From positions 1-41,227 of IMG/VR virus record IMGVR_UViG_2713896799_000015: a stretch of DNA of 41,227 bases. One strand, given 5' to 3'. Within the stretch, counting starts at the first letter, position 1. The number at the start of each line of letters is the position of its first letter. The notes under the pieces are model-generated. The model saw only the letters and a list, made by a program, of their open reading frames with translations. It was not told where the DNA came from and searched no databases. Of this stretch, positions 3,241 through 41,227 are shown one piece after another. The translations under genes and the position numbers were made by a program. This DNA comes from a virus (taxonomy: Duplodnaviria; Heunggongvirae; Uroviricota; Caudoviricetes).

Positions 3241-5181
3241 ATGTCTTATTTAAAATACAGAACAGATATTGATGGGCTGCGAGCTATTGCGGTTTTGCTG
3301 GTCGTGCTGTACCACGCAAACTTTCCTATTCATGGTGGTTTTATTGGTGTAGATGTTTTTTTCGTCATATCAGGATATCTCATTACCAACATCATATATA
3401 AAGAGACTAAAAGAAATATTTTTTCATTCCTTAATTTTTACAAACGTCGAATAAAGAGATTGCTCCCAGCTTTTGCTTTTCTTCTTTTATTTTTATTTGT
3501 TTACTGCAAATTATATTTGATGCCAGATGAACTTATATCATTCTCTAAAAGTGCGGTATACGCTCTTCTTGGCATAAGCAATTTCTATTTTTTTAGTAGC
3601 ACAGGTTACTTTAACTCAACCTCTTATGAACCGCTTTTACACACATGGTCGCTTTCCGTTGAAGAGCAGTTCTACATTGTATGGCCTTTCATCGTTTTCA
3701 TGCTCGCTCGGAACTCAGGGACAAAAAAAGCAATAATAATATCCTCATTACTATTTATTGTATTCCTTGGTATTTCACAGTATGGAGCGGTTAATTATAA
3801 AACAGCAGCGTATCTCCTACTGCCTTTTAGGTTCTTTGAGTTGCTCTCAGGTGCCCTACTTGCTATCTATAAAGATTCAATAACAAAACATCTGCGCCAC
3901 GGTTCTGTAATTTCACTGGTCGGCGTAATGCTGATTGTGTTGAGTTCATTATTTATAAATTCTAACACGCCATTTCCTGGGTTCACTGTTTTGCCTACAT
4001 GTTTAGGCGCTGTAATGCTTATTGCTGCAGGTGACTCATCCAAAAACTTCATTTCTAAAGTGCTGTCTTTAACTCCAGTTGTTTATGTAGGAAGAATTTC
4101 CTACTCTCTTTATTTATGGCACTGGCCTGTACTGATTCTTGCTGAATATAGGGGGATCGATCTTACGGCCTTAAATGCGACGGCGCTCATACTTATCGCA
4201 TTCATCATGGCAAGCATAAGCTATCACTTCGTTGAAAAGCCATTTAGGAAGGATTCGCTGCAATATTTCAGGACTGCATTTATAACCATCTACCTGATAC
4301 CATTAATAGTATCCGCTGCCTATGCAGCGTACATTTTAAAAAATGATGGTTTTCGCGCCAAAAGTTCAGAGTTAGTATCTGAATTAGAAGAGAGAAATGC
4401 GACAAATATTATGCGCCCACAGTGTATTGATAAATTATTTATCGGTAATGTAAATGACTGTCATCTTGGCGTTAATAAAGGCGAAGTAGATGGCGTGCTT
4501 CTTGGTGACTCCTTTGGTAATGCATATGCTTACTTTATTGATGAACTTGCGAAAGATGCTGGAATATCAATAACAGATACTACATATAGCTCAACACCTG
4601 TAATATCAGGAATTTATGTGCAGGATATCAGGAATAAGATATCTGACATAGATGCTAACCTGATAATGACATATACAAAAAACAGGCTGGAGTATGCAGC
4701 AAAACAAAAGTTCGCGATAATTTCCGTTTTTTGGGATCAGTACGGGCCACAAAATAATTACTTCCGTATCTTCGATAAAAACGGTGACGTATCGGAGAAT
4801 GCTTACCAGTTGCAATCTGAAGCAATAAAATATCTGCTGTCCAATGGCGTGAAAGTTTACATCATTGCAAGACCTTACCAGTCTATTGGCCCTGCTGCGA
4901 TAAACAAACTGCGCCAAATTAAGCTGCGGCATGGGGATGTAACAACTGAAAAATATGAATACGGCGTAAAGAAAGATGATCGGATAGAATACAAGTTAAA
5001 GCAGGAGTTCCCTCAGATAACGCTAATCGATCCTAACGATGTACTTTGCCACAAAGGGGAATGTGATGCCATCGTGGATGGAAAGATCATTTTCAGAACT
5101 GATGGTTCACACCTGAATGCTGTTGGAGCAAAAAAAATCGGGGAAGAGTATTTGAAAAACTACGCAAACCCATTTCGATAA
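3241..5181 (+). CDS. O-antigen acetyltransferase, OafA/Oac-like (acyltransferase-3 membrane domain plus C-terminal SGNH-type domain)
   Basis: N-terminal RTDIDGLRAIAVLLVVLYHA...GVDVFFVISGYLIT motif, about 10 TM segments, 646 aa; AT-rich and opposite in strand to neighbours (moron). Confidence 0.8.
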   Translation: MSYLKYRTDIDGLRAIAVLLVVLYHANFPIHGGFIGVDVFFVISGYLITNIIYKETKRNIFSFLNFYKRRIKRLLPAFAFLLLFLFVYCKLYLMPDELISFSKSAVYALLGISNFYFFSSTGYFNSTSYEPLLHTWSLSVEEQFYIVWPFIVFMLARNSGTKKAIIISSLLFIVFLGISQYGAVNYKTAAYLLLPFRFFELLSGALLAIYKDSITKHLRHGSVISLVGVMLIVLSSLFINSNTPFPGFTVLPTCLGAVMLIAAGDSSKNFISKVLSLTPVVYVGRISYSLYLWHWPVLILAEYRGIDLTALNATALILIAFIMASISYHFVEKPFRKDSLQYFRTAFITIYLIPLIVSAAYAAYILKNDGFRAKSSELVSELEERNATNIMRPQCIDKLFIGNVNDCHLGVNKGEVDGVLLGDSFGNAYAYFIDELAKDAGISITDTTYSSTPVISGIYVQDIRNKISDIDANLIMTYTKNRLEYAAKQKFAIISVFWDQYGPQNNYFRIFDKNGDVSENAYQLQSEAIKYLLSNGVKVYIIARPYQSIGPAAINKLRQIKLRHGDVTTEKYEYGVKKDDRIEYKLKQEFPQITLIDPNDVLCHKGECDAIVDGKIIFRTDGSHLNAVGAKKIGEEYLKNYANPFR

Positions 5182-7547: not shown

Positions 7548-7562
7548 TTACCTTTCAGGTAA
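7548..7562. promoter_or_regulatory. Operator TTACCTTTCAGGTAA (perfect)
   Basis: 15-bp palindrome; the 16-mer ATTACCTTTCAGGTAA is identical to the copy at 25375-25390. Confidence 0.6.
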
Positions 7563-7599
7563 TTTGCAAAACGTGCTGGATAGCAAACAAATTATTTGC

Positions 7600-7619
7600 T
7601 ACTGTATAAATATACAGTT
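7600..7619. promoter_or_regulatory. LexA (SOS) box
   Basis: TACTGTATAAATATACAGTT matches consensus TACTGTATATATATACAGTA at 18 of 20 positions; 20 bp upstream of the 7640 ATG. Confidence 0.75.
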
Positions 7620-7639
7620 ATTGCATGGAGAAGATTAAG

Positions 7640-7897
7640 ATGCAGCAGTATCACTATCCACTGGAAGACGGATTTACCGAAAGGATTCACACGCCGGGAG
7701 GCGTCAGGTCACTGGTGGAGGGATCGCACTTGATGAAATTACTCCGGGATCTCGATAAGGATGGATTTAATGTCGATGGCCCACTTGCCGAACTGACTGC
7801 ACTGATTAACTACGTCACCAGCTCACAGATGTCTATGCGGGATCTGCAAACACATCTCGACTATTGTGCCGAACAATTACGAAAACAAACCCGGTAA
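7640..7897 (+). CDS. Small antirepressor-like protein (stand-alone homolog of Ant C-terminal domain)
   Basis: GGAG 9 nt upstream of ATG; aligns with the last ~85 residues of the 312-aa Ant (shared YxYPL, IHxPxGV, LMKLL, DG, AELT, RDxQTH). Confidence 0.55.
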   Translation: MQQYHYPLEDGFTERIHTPGGVRSLVEGSHLMKLLRDLDKDGFNVDGPLAELTALINYVTSSQMSMRDLQTHLDYCAEQLRKQTR

Positions 7898-7904
7898 ATT
7901 TAAA

Positions 7905-7920
7905 GGCCGCAAGAGCGGCC
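7905..7920. terminator. Hairpin GGCCGC-AAGA-GCGGCC downstream of ant (minus) and of the small gene (plus)
   Basis: On the minus strand the stem is followed by TTTAAATTT. Confidence 0.45.
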
Positions 7921-7921
7921 T

Positions 7922-7933
7922 GTGACATGTCAC
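7922..7933. repeat. Palindrome GTGACATGTCAC, copy 1 of 3
   Basis: Perfect 12-bp palindrome 1 nt from the hairpin; same 12-mer at 26364 and 28628. Confidence 0.7.
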
Positions 7934-7971
7934 GCTAGTTTCGTTTTGCACGTCCCTGTGCCGCCGTTCTG

Positions 7972-8910
7972 TCAGAAGAACCCTGCCTTGTCGTTGATGT
8001 ATTCCGCGTGCGTCTGGATATCACGCAGGCATTTGCTCACACCGACGATGTAGCAGAACATGGTGGTCAGCTCCGCCGCCGCGCCCGATACATCGTGCCC
8101 GTCTTCCTGTAACTGGTTCAGCAGTTTCATCAGCAGTGAGTTCTCCGTCAGGCCGAGAACACCCGACGGCGAATGAATCAGACTGCGGTAGCCTGGCTTC
8201 AATGGATAACCATAACATTTTGTCTGTGTTTTAATTGCCTCACGAAGCGCATCTAACATCTTGACTGCCACTTCATCATTCTCTGATGCAGATCCAGCAG
8301 GGAGATACTCCCCTTCAAGCGGAACCCGAGCAACAAGAGACAACGCTTCGGCAAATTGATCTTCACCAATTTCTTTGTACGAACAGCCAAAATGAGATTT
8401 CAGTGACGACCACATGGTGATCATCGCCTTAGCCTGTTTTTCTTTTGGCAGAGACTGACCGCGACTCATGACGAGTTGTTTAATGGCTTCCTGCTGTTCA
8501 GTTGTTATTTTACCCGGCAACGCCTTTTTAGCTTTGCGTGGGTTAACCACATGGCCTTTAGTCCAGTACTCGTAGAGCACATCGTCACACTCTTCCTGAT
8601 ACTGGATTACCTTGTCGCGGATTTCAGGGCGGACTTTGTTAGGGCTGATGCTGTTCAACCAAGCTGCCAATTTTCGTAAAGCCATACAAATCATGGCTTG
8701 CACCCCACCGGCAGAAGGTATGGTGATTTCCACCATACCCTTCGAGAAGCGTTGAGAAATCTTCTTATGTTGAGATTTCCAGTCTAGCCCCATTCCCTCA
8801 ACGATAGGTTTCATTGGGGTATACGGTTCGCCGTTGTGATTGACAACATAAAGCTCTGCGCCGTGGAATGGCACGTTGATAGTAGATACTGCTGTTGCTA
8901 TACTCGTCAT
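7972..8910 (-). CDS. Antirepressor Ant
   Basis: 312 aa, directly downstream of an Arc-like gene as in P22 immI; C-terminal domain shared with the small LexA-linked gene. Confidence 0.65.
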   Translation of the reverse strand: MTSIATAVSTINVPFHGAELYVVNHNGEPYTPMKPIVEGMGLDWKSQHKKISQRFSKGMVEITIPSAGGVQAMICMALRKLAAWLNSISPNKVRPEIRDKVIQYQEECDDVLYEYWTKGHVVNPRKAKKALPGKITTEQQEAIKQLVMSRGQSLPKEKQAKAMITMWSSLKSHFGCSYKEIGEDQFAEALSLVARVPLEGEYLPAGSASENDEVAVKMLDALREAIKTQTKCYGYPLKPGYRSLIHSPSGVLGLTENSLLMKLLNQLQEDGHDVSGAAAELTTMFCYIVGVSKCLRDIQTHAEYINDKAGFF

Positions 8911-8958
8911 GTCGTTAATTCCTATACGTAGTTTTACGATACTGAAGCCCTGACGGTC

Positions 8959-8973
8959 TGGCCACCGTGGGGC
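8959..8973. promoter_or_regulatory. Mnt/Arc-type operator-like site (core CCACCGTGGGGC)
   Basis: Shares 12 bp with the 9165-9179 palindrome; lies between arc and ant. Confidence 0.4.
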
Positions 8974-8982
8974 TTCGCTGTT

Positions 8983-9150
8983 TTATGCCACGCTATTCTT
9001 CTCACCAGTGAGTCCATACACTTTCCTCAGCTGATAGATAATCTCTGTATTGAACTTTCGGCATTCTTTTTCGCCATTTCTTTCAATAGCTAACTTCACA
9101 TCGTCCGGAAAACGAACTCGTCGTTGACACATCTCTTTTGCTTTTTGCAT
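8983..9150 (-). CDS. Arc-like ribbon-helix-helix repressor
   Basis: 55 aa from ATG at 9150 with AAGGAG RBS; RVRFPDDVKLAIERNGEKECRKFNTEIIYQL resembles the P22 Arc fold signature. Confidence 0.55.
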   Translation of the reverse strand: MQKAKEMCQRRVRFPDDVKLAIERNGEKECRKFNTEIIYQLRKVYGLTGEKNSVA

Positions 9151-9164
9151 TTCATATCTCCTTA

Positions 9165-9179
9165 GCCCCACCGTGGGGC
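9165..9179. promoter_or_regulatory. Perfect 15-bp palindrome GCCCCACCGTGGGGC (Mnt-operator-like)
   Basis: In the divergent arc/mnt control region; central CACCGTG recalls the P22 Omnt core (from memory). Confidence 0.5.
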
Positions 9180-9270
9180 AAAATAATTGTCACACCGTGC
9201 GTCATTGATGTCAAGCACACGGTGAGGCATACTTCAATCATTGCAAGTAACTCAATATTTGGTGAAGAAC

Positions 9271-9702
9271 ATGAGCAGAGAAGATCCACAACTAAGGATC
9301 AGACTTCCCGTCGAAGTAAAAGAAAAAATAGAAATTTCTGCAAAAGCCAATAAGCGATCAATGAACGCTGAAATAGTACAACGTCTTGACACCAGCTTTC
9401 TGAAAGATATTCATGAAGATGACGTAATTTCTGCTTATGAAGCAAAAATCATTGCAAACAATGCACGACATGAAATATCAAATATTATTTTCAAAAGAAC
9501 CTTTAATGAAATTAATAAGAAAATAACACTTGGACATACAAGTTTTTATATAAACCTTAATGACCTTGAACTGGAATCACTTGCAGATAATGATTACCAG
9601 ATCATCTTTGAAAAAACATTTAATAAGCTCAATGAACTAGGTTACATCATCTGTGAAAACTCATGGGATGCAGATGGTTTTGGAATTGAAATACCTGAAT
9701 AG
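9271..9702 (+). CDS. Mnt-like RHH repressor with ~70-aa AT-rich C-terminal extension
   Basis: N-terminus MSREDPQLRIRLPVEVKEKIEISAKANKRSMNAEIVQRL parallels P22 Mnt; protein is 143 aa versus 82 for Mnt. Confidence 0.5.
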   Translation: MSREDPQLRIRLPVEVKEKIEISAKANKRSMNAEIVQRLDTSFLKDIHEDDVISAYEAKIIANNARHEISNIIFKRTFNEINKKITLGHTSFYINLNDLELESLADNDYQIIFEKTFNKLNELGYIICENSWDADGFGIEIPE

Positions 9703-9744
9703 GAAGAACAAAAGGCGTGTACATATTACACGTCTTTAATACAA

Positions 9745-10356
9745 TTGAAAAACGCCACATTACTGATGTATGTTACAACAAGGAGCGATATTTTGAAAAC
9801 CATATCTATATTAAAGGTTGCATTAGGCGTCGCTATTATTTTGACTCTCTCAATATTGTTTTATTTTTACCACAAACAAACTGCTATTGCTCTTGATAGT
9901 CACGCGGCAAACTCATTTTTCTCAGAGTACATAGTGCCGCTATCAGGAAGCGGTATAACAAATAAATATACTGACTATGACATCAAATATGGAATTGATG
10001 ATGGGGAGACTATTGTATTACATGTAATCATTAAAAACCTAATGACAGTAAATAAAAATACAGACTTCAACGATAAAAATACAATACATCACAACAACAG
10101 CAAAACATTAATTTCTTATAGTAGCAACATCTATACGGATAAATACCTAAAATACATATCAGAAGATACAATAAAAGAAACCCGCGAAAAGTTAAAAAAC
10201 ATATATTGTGCATCCGGCAGTTTTCACAAATTATCGCCGCAAGAGCGTTTATTCTACGAAGCAAGAAAACAACGTAAGTCAATAATATTACATTATTATG
10301 CTGATTCAGGGGAGACACTCATATTTAATATTGGGGTTTCCCCTGAATCATGCTAA
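9745..10356 (+). CDS. Membrane-anchored protein of unknown function (candidate superinfection-exclusion protein)
   Basis: Single N-terminal TM helix, Asn/Lys/Tyr-rich body, very AT-rich; occupies the position of sieA next to mnt in P22. Confidence 0.4.
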   Translation: MKNATLLMYVTTRSDILKTISILKVALGVAIILTLSILFYFYHKQTAIALDSHAANSFFSEYIVPLSGSGITNKYTDYDIKYGIDDGETIVLHVIIKNLMTVNKNTDFNDKNTIHHNNSKTLISYSSNIYTDKYLKYISEDTIKETREKLKNIYCASGSFHKLSPQERLFYEARKQRKSIILHYYADSGETLIFNIGVSPESC

Positions 10357-10367
10357 AGGTGTTTAAC

Positions 10368-25285: not shown

Positions 25286-25353
25286 ATCAATGACTCCGTA
25301 CGCAATTAAATTATTATCAATTTAACCACATATGATTTATTTATCGTAGAAGG

Positions 25354-25390
25354 TTGACATTTAACGCGTGAATTATTACCTTTCAGGTAA
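25354..25390 (+). promoter_or_regulatory. Promoter-like TTGACA plus operator TTACCTTTCAGGTAA (25376-25390)
   Basis: TTGACA at 25354-25359; perfect operator copy begins 17 bp later, upstream of the tRNA unit. Confidence 0.45.
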
Positions 25391-25712
25391 CTAAAGAGCT
25401 CATTCTGGTTACTAACCTGACTGGCTTGTCGTTAAATTAAACAGGTGGAGTGAGCTTTTATTTTGAGCAGTACGGCGTATGGCACATGCGCCGATAGCGG
25501 TCTGGATACGTTTAAGGGGCACCCTCCCTTGCTCGGGCAAACGAACCAGGTAGCCGGAATGTGCAAGTCGAGCGGTTTTATTCCGCGCACGGGGATTCAC
25601 CATCCCGGCGATTCGGTGTGACGCCTCGGAAGAGACGAGGGTACAACGATGAGAGCATTTATGGAGCCGCGACAAAGTGTGGCGCCTTAACAGGCTAAGT
25701 GCTCTCAGCGTT
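25391..25712 (+). ncRNA. Candidate ~320-nt noncoding leader upstream of the tRNA
   Basis: GC-rich region with several short stems; only ORF here is an Arg-rich antisense frame that looks non-coding. Confidence 0.25.
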
Positions 25713-25789
25713 GTGGCATTAGCTCAGTCGGACAGAGCAACCGCCTTCTAAGCGGTTGGTCGCAGGTTCGAATCCTGCATGCCACGCCA
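25713..25789 (+). tRNA. tRNA-Arg (anticodon UCU)
   Basis: 77-nt cloverleaf: acceptor GTGGCAT/ATGCCAC, anticodon stem ACCGC/GCGGT, loop CTTCTAA, T-arm GCAGG-TTCGAAT-CCTGC, encoded CCA. Confidence 0.85.
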
Positions 25790-25832
25790 GAATCACGCCT
25801 AAGGACCGTGATGCCAGAAGTTCCAGGGGCTT

Positions 25833-25876: not shown

Positions 25877-25952
25877 AGCAGGACGCCATTGCGATGACTT
25901 CATGCTGTAAACCCGTACAGCCACGGAAGGCATAACTCATTGCTTCCAGTTC

Positions 25953-35073: not shown

Positions 35074-35658
35074 ATGAAAAGTATCCAGGACGTCCGCAGG
35101 CAAAATCTCAACGACTTGATCGACCGTGAATTCAATGGTGTTCAGACGCGGATGGCTGAAAAACTTGGAACTCAGGCAAATCTGGTAAACCGCTGGGCTC
35201 TTGGCAAGAAGGTTATCGGCGACCAGGTTGCGCGAAAAATTGAAGCTGCCGCCAATAAACCCCGTAACTGGCTTGATATCGATCGCTCGCTTTCTCAGGA
35301 AGGTTTTCAGCCTGTCGGACCAAGCGACATTGGTCAACTGGCGGCTCACAACCTGGAACGCTGGATGAGCGAAAGCCGCGACCTTTCAACGCAGGGAAAA
35401 CTTCACCGCGCATCCGGCGTCGCCCAGGTGACAATCAGCCGCCTGTTAAACAATGAGGTCAGCGTTTCCATTTCCACCCTGGAGAATGTTGCATCCGCAT
35501 TCGGGCGTCACGGCTATGAATTACTGATTCACCCGCACGACCCTGCGACTATCAACTATGACCGCTCGCGCTACGCTTTGTTACCCGAAACCGAGAAAGC
35601 AAAGATCGAAAGTTACATTGAATTTGTCATCAACCAGAACGAAAAAAACAAACAATAA
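35074..35658 (+). CDS. Prophage repressor, tandem HTH, no peptidase domain
   Basis: Two XRE-type HTH segments in 194 aa; no S24 Ser/Lys autopeptidase region; flanked by operator clusters. Confidence 0.55.
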   Translation: MKSIQDVRRQNLNDLIDREFNGVQTRMAEKLGTQANLVNRWALGKKVIGDQVARKIEAAANKPRNWLDIDRSLSQEGFQPVGPSDIGQLAAHNLERWMSESRDLSTQGKLHRASGVAQVTISRLLNNEVSVSISTLENVASAFGRHGYELLIHPHDPATINYDRSRYALLPETEKAKIESYIEFVINQNEKNKQ

Positions 35659-39970: not shown

Positions 39971-41227
39971 TTATTTATTACTGTCTTCCATCCACTTCTC
40001 AAACTTCGACGGGGAGAACGGAATCAGATCCGTATGCTCCCCGTCAATCCAGGAATCAATCATATCTGCCCACTGCTGCAACATGTAGGCGCGCTGTCTG
40101 GCGTATTCCGCTTTGTTATATACGGCGCGCACACCTTTCTGCTCATGTGCCAGAGCCTTTTCAATCCAGTCTGAAGGATAACCAGCCTCATGCAATAACG
40201 TACTGGCTGTACGGCGCATATCGTGTACGGTGAAGTCCTGAATATGCTCACCATTTTCATTTATTATTTTCACCGTTCTGTCGATCAGAGAGTTCAGCGC
40301 GGCATTAGATAATGGCTTCCGGAAGTTGTAACGACCAGGAACCAGATATTCACTTCCACCAGCGCACATCTGCAGCCCGACCAATATATCCTGTGCCTGT
40401 TTAGGCAGGTAAATAACGTGCGCCCGGCTTCCCTTCATGCGGTCTGAAGGAATTGTCCATGTCCATTTTTTAAAATCTATTTCGTCCCACGTTGCATTGG
40501 TGAATTCGCCTTTACGAACCATAGTGATAAGCACCAGCTTTAAAGCCATTTTCATAGTGCCCATAGCACCAATGGCATCCAGCGTGCGGAAGAACAGACC
40601 AATTTCTTCTGGTGTCAGTGTTCGCTCTCGTGGTTTAAATATGGCGATAGACGAAGGTTTAATGTCAGCAGCAGGATTAAACAAACCATGACCACGGTCA
40701 TTGGCATGACGGTATACGCTGCTGATGATCTCCCTGGCCTGCACTGCTGTTGCCCGGCCGCCGCGTTCGACAATCCGGTCACACAAATCACGAACCATCG
40801 ATGTGGTAATTTCAGCCATCATTTTGTTACCAAGAACAGGAAGTATGTCACGGTCGATCACCGCCTGCTTCATTGCGCGGGTACTGTCAGCCAGGATGAC
40901 GTGTTTCATATAACTGTCGGTATGTACCGCAAACGTCTCGGCACCACGAATCTTTTTGATACCGTCACGTTTAGCCGCAGCCGGTGACTGGCCTGCTTTA
41001 AGCAGCTTCTTTGCAGCAATCAGTTCTTCTCGCGCTTCTGCCAGGCTGATACCGTCACGCCCATACTGCCCAATTACCAGTGTTTCGCGGCGACCGTTGA
41101 TACGGTAGTCATAGCGAAACGAGACCGTGCCTGACGTAAGCACAGCTACATACAGCCCGTCACGATCGGAGACCTTGTACAGTTTGTCCTGCGGCTTGAG
41201 GTTTTTTAATTTTGTATCGGTAAGCAC
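39971..41227 (-). CDS. Tyrosine integrase, P4-type; 5' end may be truncated by window
   Basis: N-terminal DUF4102-like arm-binding region, HDMRRT (H-x-x-R) and C-terminal Tyr region; ORF runs to the last base. Confidence 0.8.
   Translation of the reverse strand: MLTDTKLKNLKPQDKLYKVSDRDGLYVAVLTSGTVSFRYDYRINGRRETLVIGQYGRDGISLAEAREELIAAKKLLKAGQSPAAAKRDGIKKIRGAETFAVHTDSYMKHVILADSTRAMKQAVIDRDILPVLGNKMMAEITTSMVRDLCDRIVERGGRATAVQAREIISSVYRHANDRGHGLFNPAADIKPSSIAIFKPRERTLTPEEIGLFFRTLDAIGAMGTMKMALKLVLITMVRKGEFTNATWDEIDFKKWTWTIPSDRMKGSRAHVIYLPKQAQDILVGLQMCAGGSEYLVPGRYNFRKPLSNAALNSLIDRTVKIINENGEHIQDFTVHDMRRTASTLLHEAGYPSDWIEKALAHEQKGVRAVYNKAEYARQRAYMLQQWADMIDSWIDGEHTDLIPFSPSKFEKWMEDSNK

Follow-up and report, generated by a model that had tools for sequence, protein, structure and literature searches.

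An Escherichia coli Uetakevirus prophage with a predicted SOS-controlled antirepressor and a P22-type antirepressor that carries a related C-terminal domain

Why should one temperate phage keep two antirepressor genes that share a domain and are controlled in different ways? The question is raised by a stretch of viral DNA of 41,227 nucleotides (IMG/VR record IMGVR_UViG_2713896799_000015, positions 1 to 41,227; hereafter the window), which megablast and tblastn searches assign to a prophage of the epsilon15/phiV10-like podovirus type (Uetakevirus) of E. coli, with phage TL-2011b as the nearest relative for the region concerned. Two convergent open reading frames (ORFs) appear there in a mechanical ORF list, at 7625/7640-7897 on the plus strand and at 7972-8910 on the minus strand, and encode a small protein, Ant1, and a large Ant of 312 residues. 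A first reading of the letters (the original prediction) had proposed that the small protein matches the end of the large one along its full length, that the shared part is the probable repressor-binding module, and that a LexA box before the small gene and an Arc/Mnt-controlled module around the large one give two input routes, SOS and immI, to one output. Our analysis indicates that the domain is shared and that the large Ant acquired it by a change of tail, and we conclude that both proteins probably switch off the same repressor, Rep, which the large Ant would bind through this domain.

The similarity of the two proteins is significant and far above chance. In a BLASTP alignment, residues 2-84 of Ant1 match residues 224-308 of the large Ant with 38 of 85 positions identical (45%, 2 gaps, E 3e-22), in keeping with the full-length correspondence first proposed. 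The limits originally given to both genes are correct as well; the small gene itself begins with the ATG at 7640, which is homologous to the first codon of ant in phage SPC32H, while the mechanical ORF begins at 7625. Both proteins match the same chain of the Protein Data Bank (PDB), 5d50_E, labelled 'Anti-repressor protein': Ant1 with residues 7-89 against 3-85 (E 1.6e-46), and the large Ant with residues 231-307 (E 1.4e-14). The top PDB match of an AlphaFold2 model of the large Ant in Foldseek is 5d50_G (probability 1.00, target TM score 0.79), with a root-mean-square deviation of 2.1 Å over 71 superposed columns, and all 11 positions that are invariant or nearly invariant across the family (Y, H, G, L, S, L, G, V, E, Y, H) are retained in the large protein. 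By these comparisons, the C-terminal domain of the large Ant belongs to the Ant-C family, that of SPC32H Ant. SPC32H Ant, which was crystallised in complex with its repressor (PDB 5D50), is described as a tetramer in which all 86 residues form the Rep-binding unit. Homology of both window proteins to this Rep-binding protein supports the view of the shared domain as a probable repressor-binding module.

The remainder of the large Ant is of P22 type. Pfam places P22_AR_N (PF10547) at residues 12-121 (E 5.7e-45) and does not find P22_AR_C (PF10548) in the protein. Window positions 8307-8976 have 94% nucleotide identity to ant of the P22-like phage CUS-3, and the two proteins are almost identical through the motif VPLEGE and unrelated beyond it, where CUS-3 and P22 continue with P22_AR_C. 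Positions 7948-8205, in turn, are an inverted copy, at 89-96% nucleotide identity, of the 3' end of the Bro-N/AntA-fused ant genes of phages phiV10, phiv142-3, Tyrion and TL-2011b. The AlphaFold2 model (mean pLDDT, the predicted local distance difference test, 75.5) consists of a beta/alpha N-terminal domain (residues 1-118), a helical middle domain (134-197) and a helical C-terminal domain; linker residues 202-213 have a pLDDT below 50, and DSSP assigns no secondary structure at 196-207. As judged from these alignments, the large Ant is a chimera of a CUS-3-like chassis and an Ant-C tail of the fused kind (type 2, see below). Remote homology between P22_AR_C and Ant-C was considered as well; a few residues fall in register in a MAFFT alignment, but hhalign returns a probability of 0.4% (E 0.14), and as far as sequence can tell the tail swap appears to be non-homologous.

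The window protein is not the only variant on this chassis. In public proteins, the VPLEGE chassis and hinge carry at least four types of tail, namely P22_AR_C, the Ant-C of the window, a 286-residue type and a 307-residue type, the last of which, in P22-like prophages, is distantly related to Ant-C (hhalign 90%, E 1.7e-6). The immI Ants of 307 residues (P0184 / P0224; records L018 and L019, 10001-10924) have the P22 coat, gp7 and gp16 as neighbours, and their tail is neither P22_AR_C nor the window type.

The relation of the two Ant-C domains to each other became clearer from the family as a whole. When 1.84 billion representative proteins were searched exhaustively with a profile, only 54 clusters emerged, mostly standalone proteins of 85-95 residues; in fused proteins Ant-C is always C-terminal, behind AntA, Bro-N, Phage_pRha, ORF6N or P22_AR_N heads. 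A tree of 16 Ant-C domains separates two clean clades with 34-44% identity between them: type 1 is standalone, adjoins the tailspike gene and lies behind a LexA box, and type 2 is fused. Standalone type-2 proteins of 95-97 residues, which have no N-terminal domain, also exist. The type-2 domains group by phage lineage and not by head, and that of the window shares 92-93% identity with its AntA- and Bro-N-fused counterparts in E. coli phages. Only type 1 occurs in the Salmonella phages epsilon15, SPC32H and SPN1S, with one Ant-C place per record.

In relatives of the window phage, the Bro-N/AntA-fused gene has a control region of its own. It is preceded by isrK (68-80 bits) and C4 antisense RNA (61-78 bits), called with Rfam models RF01394 and RF01695, in phiV10, TL-2011b, phiv142-3, Tyrion, a Klebsiella phage, and Salmonella and Klebsiella prophages (L010, L011), and the promoter ahead of these RNAs, TTGCAA-17-TATATT, carries a TTACC-N5-GGTAA site. 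All three Ant-C genes occur together in TL-2011b, in a chromosome of avian pathogenic E. coli (APEC), and in Salmonella and Klebsiella prophages, with toxin-antitoxin cargo between them. The order in the window is small ant, terminator, large ant, and the IsrK/C4-Bro-N/AntA module is absent. The terminator at 7904-7921 has the loop AAGA of the first of two direct copies in TL-2011b and the right flank, GTGACATGTCACG, of the second. This mixed terminator indicates that about 2.9 kb, comprising IsrK/C4, the Bro-N Ant and a YafO toxin-antitoxin pair, were deleted by recombination between two direct copies. The immI module is present over at least 80% of its length in 33 of 5,426 complete E. coli genomes. 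Among the matches listed, all 25 records match window positions 7903-9760 only (one of them from 7948), in a single place, with the small-ant region elsewhere in the record, and the one such genome that was inspected has the undeleted layout. The control systems for the Ant-C domain in this lineage are three, not two. The small gene is moreover not a 'small copy' of the large one, as had been suggested: it is the ancestral, already known SOS antirepressor, and the large ant gained its C-terminal domain from the third, N-terminally fused resident paralogue.

The status of Ant1 as a known kind of element follows from its 87% identity to SPC32H ant, its position and the conserved box that the two genes share. 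Three blocks are conserved in an alignment of the regions upstream of the small ant from seven Uetakeviruses, SPC32H included: the LexA box, the TGGATA-17-TACTGT promoter, and a TTACC-N5-GGTAA site at 7548-7562. The box and both promoter hexamers are in register in the window, SPC32H, phiV10, TL-2011b, phiv142-3, Tyrion and a Klebsiella phage, and the predicted box aligns column for column with that of the studied SPC32H ant, which confirms the placement of the small gene behind a LexA box. It agrees at 18 of 20 positions with the E. coli LexA consensus. In work of Kim and Ryu from 2013, SPC32H Ant is reported to be LexA-repressed and a point mutation in its box to render the phage, SPC32N, constitutively lytic. 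A second CTGT-N8-ACAG in the window, at 25905-25920, was rejected as a LexA box; its spacer is G+C-rich (AAACCCGT) and it lacks a promoter context. Annotation passes this SOS-controlled, SPC32H-type Ant by: no Pfam or NCBIfam model covers it, its PHROG assignment is phrog_450, 'unknown function', and a Pfam match to DUF724 is spurious, being below threshold or repeat-driven.

The large gene, by alignment with P22, sits in a genuine P22-type immI module, which upholds its assignment to Arc/Mnt control: an Mnt-like and a putative Arc-like protein, a sar RNA, and promoter and operator positions that align with those of P22 are all present, in the order mnt / Pmnt-Pant / arc / sar / ant, with overlapping Pant and Pmnt promoters and candidate Arc and Mnt operators. 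The best PDB match of the Mnt-like protein is the Mnt repressor 1mnt (E 3.5e-7) and phrog_1388 covers its full length, while its long C-terminal part is unrelated to P22 Mnt. The Arc-like protein matches phrog_228, Arc-like repressor (E 3.4e-5), is annotated 'Arc-like repressor' in NC_019445, and has the position and size of P22 arc; it has no match in Pfam and no sequence match in the PDB above threshold, TALE and primase matches in the PDB being below threshold or repeat-driven and discarded as spurious. The -35 element of Pant, TTGACAT, and the palindrome at the position of the Mnt operator (Omnt) are in register with the annotated Pant/Oarc/Omnt of P22 (P22 GGTCCACGGTGGACC, window GCCCCACGGTGGGGC), as are the sar terminator stem and the ant start, and repeats with a CACCGTG core occur in four copies in the control region. 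Motif scans of the immI module (7900-10360) found no LexA box and no Rep-operator motif. A near-copy of the Omnt-like palindrome, TGGCCACCGTGGGGC, lies at 8959-8973, inside the sar terminator and the 3' region of arc, and could be a second Mnt site or a hairpin coincidence.

The tandem helix-turn-helix (HTH) repressor expected from the start is encoded in the window at 35074-35658. This Rep is homologous to that of SPC32H and comprises HTH_3 at residues 106-147 and an N-terminal HTH-like region. It is 100% identical to Rep of phiV10, ZX5, phiv142-3 and others. In the phage collection to whose records our co-occurrence and identity counts refer, all E. coli phiV10-like phages share one Rep, and a Rep homologue is also carried by each of the phage records with Ant-C (35 of 35). 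Identities to the window Rep, Ant1 and type-2 domain are 78, 85.5 and 68.5% for Tyrion, 45, 60-64 and 52% for Klebsiella, and 42 and 83-87% for Salmonella, where the type-2 domain is absent. These four lineages are too few to separate co-evolution with the target from shared ancestry, but the conservation of Ant1 is clearly far above that of Rep.

The motif TTACC-N5-GGTAA is the likely operator of Rep, as its distribution suggests. With up to one mismatch it is present 13 times in the window where 0.76 copies are expected, in clusters on both sides of rep, and 6 times against 0.04 expected around rep of SPC32H, the two Reps being 42% identical. If the motif is the Rep operator, then operator specificity is common to differing Reps, which fits the conservation of Ant1 (83-87%) far above that of Rep. 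One further copy deserves mention. In 25340-25790, the -10 element of a strong promoter-like TTGACA-17-TACCTT is overlapped by a perfect TTACCTTTCAGGTAA, the 15-mer also present at 7548. A leader of about 330 nucleotides without an annotated gene follows, and then tRNA-Arg(TCT) at 25713-25789. The arrangement may give rise to a transcript under Rep control, with the structural genes on the other strand.

We propose, with a probability of about 0.7, that lysogeny maintained by Rep is undone both by Ant1, on SOS induction, and by the chimeric large Ant, from immI, in each case through the Ant-C domain. Lysogeny would be held by the non-cleavable tandem-HTH Rep, which would be removed by antirepressors built on the small helical Ant-C domain. 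In the first route, LexA would occupy the box over the -10 of the small-ant promoter; once DNA damage has removed LexA, Ant1 would be made and, in tetrameric form, would be expected to sequester Rep and displace it from operator DNA, with expression of the lytic genes as the outcome. This route is modelled on the 87%-identical SPC32H orthologue, an experimentally established system. In the second, Mnt, helped by sar RNA, would silence the large ant in the lysogen. A genome that enters a cell without a matching Mnt would fire Pant briefly, until Arc shuts the promoter off, and the burst of large Ant would neutralise the resident Rep. Such P22-like timing of expression is assumed by analogy with the P22 paradigm. 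Of the two input routes first envisaged, the SOS route stands, its LexA box being in register with that of SPC32H. An immI route to induction does not, as P22 Ant acts on superinfection; induction does not require it, and its one known role is transactivation by a superinfecting genome. By this analogy, immI would be a superinfection (anti-immunity) input and not an induction input. As to the origin of the chimera, recombination joined a P22-like ant chassis, cut at VPLEGE, to the 3' end of the resident Bro-N/AntA-fused Ant-C gene, and this replacement of the tail would have retargeted the immI cassette from a lambda-type C2 repressor to Rep.

The proposed action of the large Ant on Rep draws on several observations together: homology to a Rep binder, replacement of the tail in a Rep-type phage, a tail that tracks phage lineage, co-occurrence with Rep, and a study of phage ZX5. 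In that study, when ORF4 was overexpressed, lysogens dropped from 10^9 to 10^6 and the level of rep mRNA decreased by 75% (PMC9782041). ORF4 consists of a Bro-N head and a type-2 tail 88% identical to that of the window, and the Rep of ZX5 is 100% identical to that of the window. The paper names only the Bro-N protein ORF4 as antirepressor and mentions neither the small ant nor LexA (PMC9782041); tblastn shows that ZX5 also encodes a small Ant, 98.8% identical to Ant1 and annotated 'hypothetical protein'.

Several points weigh against this proposal. The ZX5 protein was an overexpressed, tagged Bro-N fusion whose domains were not separated (PMC9782041), and the Arc-like assignment is weak (E around 1e-5). 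Types 1 and 2, at 34-44% identity, are kept apart across four host genera, which suggests that their roles are not redundant and that their contact surfaces or targets may differ, and the distant Ant-C-like tail in the Ants of P22-like prophages suggests that the fold is not strictly bound to Rep-type repressors. The last two points would also suit an alternative in which the target of the type-2 domain is not the resident Rep but another protein, such as the repressor of a co-resident, heteroimmune prophage, so that the two genes have different outputs: the clades are ancient and separately kept, a relative of the domain is in use in P22-like phages, and antirepressors can hit non-cognate repressors, P22 Ant acting on several lambdoid repressors (compare also the Gifsy crosstalk). 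We nevertheless consider such a different target unlikely, because phage records with the type-2 domain also contain Rep, because a single Rep occurs throughout the E. coli relatives in the collection, because the domain has in E. coli been homogenised between two differently headed genes of one phage, and because a type-2 protein shifts the lysis-lysogeny balance in ZX5, a phage with an identical Rep.

Ant-C might also have lost repressor binding and serve only to tetramerise an N-terminal effector, KilA-N/APSES-like and possibly DNA-binding. The described tetramer of SPC32H Ant would agree with this, as would fusion of the domain to five or six unrelated heads (P22_AR_N, AntA, Bro-N, pRha, ORF6N) and the weak resemblance of the model's N-terminal domain to Dachshund/Ski and Mbp1 DNA-binding folds (Foldseek, E about 0.3). 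However, a pure oligomeriser need not track phage lineage or be swapped between phages with different repressors, and headless type-2 proteins of 95-97 residues exist, which makes this explanation improbable. Least probable of the three is that the large Ant forms mixed tetramers with Ant1, damping or sharpening SOS induction and not acting on Rep: the proteins share a fold and all family-invariant positions, the family is described as tetrameric and the convergent genes share one common terminator, but 55-60% of positions differ, and expression of the large gene is not expected in the lysogen, when Ant1 acts. None of these rivals is favoured by the data.

Beyond the double control of Rep, we regard as an even bet the broader view that Ant-C is a portable anti-Rep 'warhead', placed in LexA/SOS, IsrK-C4 RNA and Mnt/Arc/sar circuits, and that a P22 immI was retargeted to the unrelated tandem-HTH repressor by exchange of no more than the roughly 100 residues beyond a flexible hinge, with a resident paralogue as the recombination partner. 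The same chassis bears P22_AR_C in a C2-type phage and Ant-C in a Rep-type phage, which predicts that the C-terminal module sets target specificity. If so, specificity in the P22_AR_N / Bro-N / AntA / pRha superfamily would be encoded in the C-terminal module and be readable from sequence, and the conserved N-terminal heads would have a separate job. The interest of the locus lies mainly in this natural domain-swap experiment on antirepressor specificity. P22 Ant has been known for 50 years, and to our knowledge, on a point for which the literature was not searched, neither its repressor-contacting part nor the role of its N-terminal domain has been mapped. Pathogenic E. coli, Salmonella and Klebsiella commonly harbour Uetakevirus prophages, and the presence of up to three independently controlled antirepressors per prophage bears on forecasting their induction and superinfection behaviour. 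The features discussed are collected in Table 1.

Table 1. Features of the antirepressor locus, of Rep and its candidate operators, and of compared loci in related records. Positions are those of the window unless a record (L number) is given.
Feature	Position	Strand	Basis or remark
Large antirepressor, 312 residues, P22-type chassis with type-2 Ant-C	7972-8910	-	Pfam; alignment with CUS-3, P22 and TL-2011b Ant
Chassis, residues 1-206, ending at VPLEGE hinge	8293-8910	-	P22_AR_N (1-118) and helical middle domain (134-197)
Type-2 Ant-C domain, residues 214-312	7975-8271	-	BLASTP to Ant1, 5d50_E match, Foldseek
Ant1, 85 residues, type-1 Ant-C, SPC32H Ant orthologue	7640-7897	+	5d50_E, E 1.6e-46; 86.7% identity to SPC32H ant (tblastn)
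Small-ant promoter	7577-7619	+	TGGATA 7577-7582, 17-nucleotide spacer, TACTGT 7600-7605; assignment read from sequence
Predicted LexA box TACTGTATAAATATACAGTT	7600-7619	+	CTGT-N8-ACAG at 7602-7617; overlaps -10 of small-ant promoter
Candidate Rep operator TTACCTTTCAGGTAA	7548-7562	.	Between tailspike start and small-ant promoter; invariant in 7 Uetakeviruses
Bidirectional hairpin terminator AGGCCGCAAGAGCGGCCT	7904-7921	.	Common to both convergent ant genes; terminator scan
Terminator copies of TL-2011b	L001 1056-1073 and 4002-4019		Direct copies compared with window 7904-7921
Psar-like promoter	8876-8904	+	TTGATA-17-TATACT; promoter scan
sar antisense RNA, opposite ant leader / arc-ant junction	8912-8979	+	Rfam RF00262, 44.8 bits against gathering score 43
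Arc-like protein, 55 residues from ATG 9150, first gene of Pant transcript	8983-9150	-	33% identity, E 4e-5 to P22 Arc
immI control region	9165-9229	.	Omnt-position palindrome, Pant, inverted repeat pair; promoter scan, P22 alignment, repeats
Palindrome GCCCCACCGTGGGGC	9165-9179	.	Mnt-operator (Omnt) position
Pant	9214-9186	-	TTGACA (9214), 17-nucleotide spacer, GACAAT (9186); promoter scan
Inverted pair with CACCGTG core	9188-9199 / 9218-9229	.	Repeat search
Mnt-like repressor, 143 residues	9271-9702	+	N-terminal ribbon-helix-helix; Pfam Arc PF03869, E 1.2e-14
Rep, tandem-HTH prophage repressor, presumed common target	35074-35658	+	5d50_A, E 4e-42; 5d4z_A, E 4.1e-20
TTACC-N5-GGTAA sites	2948, 3190, 7548, 25376, 28518, 28536, 32611, 32673, 34619, 34956, 35004, 35716, 35778		Motif scan
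isrK/C4 loci of relatives	L001 1965-2150; L002 2351-2536; L003 2391-2576; L004 2340-2525
isrK/C4 loci of relatives	L005 2348-2535; L010 11251-11437; L011 10525-10712

Three other genes of the window may be recorded here. A 646-residue protein with Acyl_transf_3 and SGNH domains (OafA-like O-antigen acetyltransferase) is encoded at 3241-5181, adjoining the tailspike gene. Like phiV10 Oac, described in the ZX5 paper, it probably serves serotype conversion (PMC9782041). A 203-residue ORF at 9745-10356, between mnt and the structural genes, matches sieA of P22 in position and phrog_8033 (unknown function) over its full length, is without a Pfam family, and could act in superinfection exclusion. 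The integrase gene lies at 39971-41227.

The window arrangement is a variant of known systems. It resembles the SPC32H Ant-Rep switch (reported by Kim and Ryu in 2013, J Virol, and by Kim et al. in 2016, PNAS; PDB 5D4Z/5D50) in its small gene, which is 87% identical, adjoins the tailspike gene and has the same LexA box and promoter, and in its Rep, which is homologous (42%) and encoded among clusters of TTACC-N5-GGTAA in both phages. It differs in that SPC32H, epsilon15 and SPN1S hold one Ant-C gene, whereas the window adds a fused paralogue under other control. With immI of P22 (mnt-arc-sar-ant) it shares gene order, divergent promoters, the position of the Omnt palindrome, sar RNA, P22_AR_N and proximity to the tailspike gene. 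In contrast to P22, it has Ant-C in place of P22_AR_C and an Mnt of 143 residues with a different C-terminal part, and it belongs to a Uetakevirus whose tandem-HTH Rep is uncleavable, while P22 C2 is RecA-cleavable. Since Rep is uncleavable, unlike C2, SOS would in the window phage also work through an antirepressor.

The closest counterparts of the tail are phiV10 gp23, phiv142-3 Orf8, ZX5 ORF4 and TL-2011b gp46, which have a type-2 Ant-C 86-95% identical to that of the window and represent the DNA donor of the window tail. Unlike the window gene, the phiV10-type Bro-N/AntA fusions have another head and are under IsrK and C4 control behind a TTACC-N5-GGTAA promoter, a layout that resembles isrK-orf45-anrP of Gifsy-1 and also recalls c4-icd-ant of P1. 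Tum of phage 186, AntC of N15 and GfoA/GfhA of the Gifsy prophages likewise combine an uncleavable repressor with a LexA-repressed antirepressor gene outside the immunity region; no sequence relationship of these proteins to Ant-C was found in any search made, and none of them is reported with a second paralogue under another control system.

The modular build of the large Ant has a wider parallel in the shuffled antirepressor-like proteins. Iyer, Koonin and Aravind are said to have described, in 2002, the shuffling of heads (KilA-N, Bro-N, pRha, AntA, ORF6N, P22_AR_N) and tails (KilAC, ORF6C, P22_AR_C) among such proteins. The window protein has the same head-plus-tail modularity, with Ant-C acting as a further tail module. 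Ant-C is without a Pfam or NCBIfam model, and it differs from the other tails in that the structure of its complex with a repressor has been solved.

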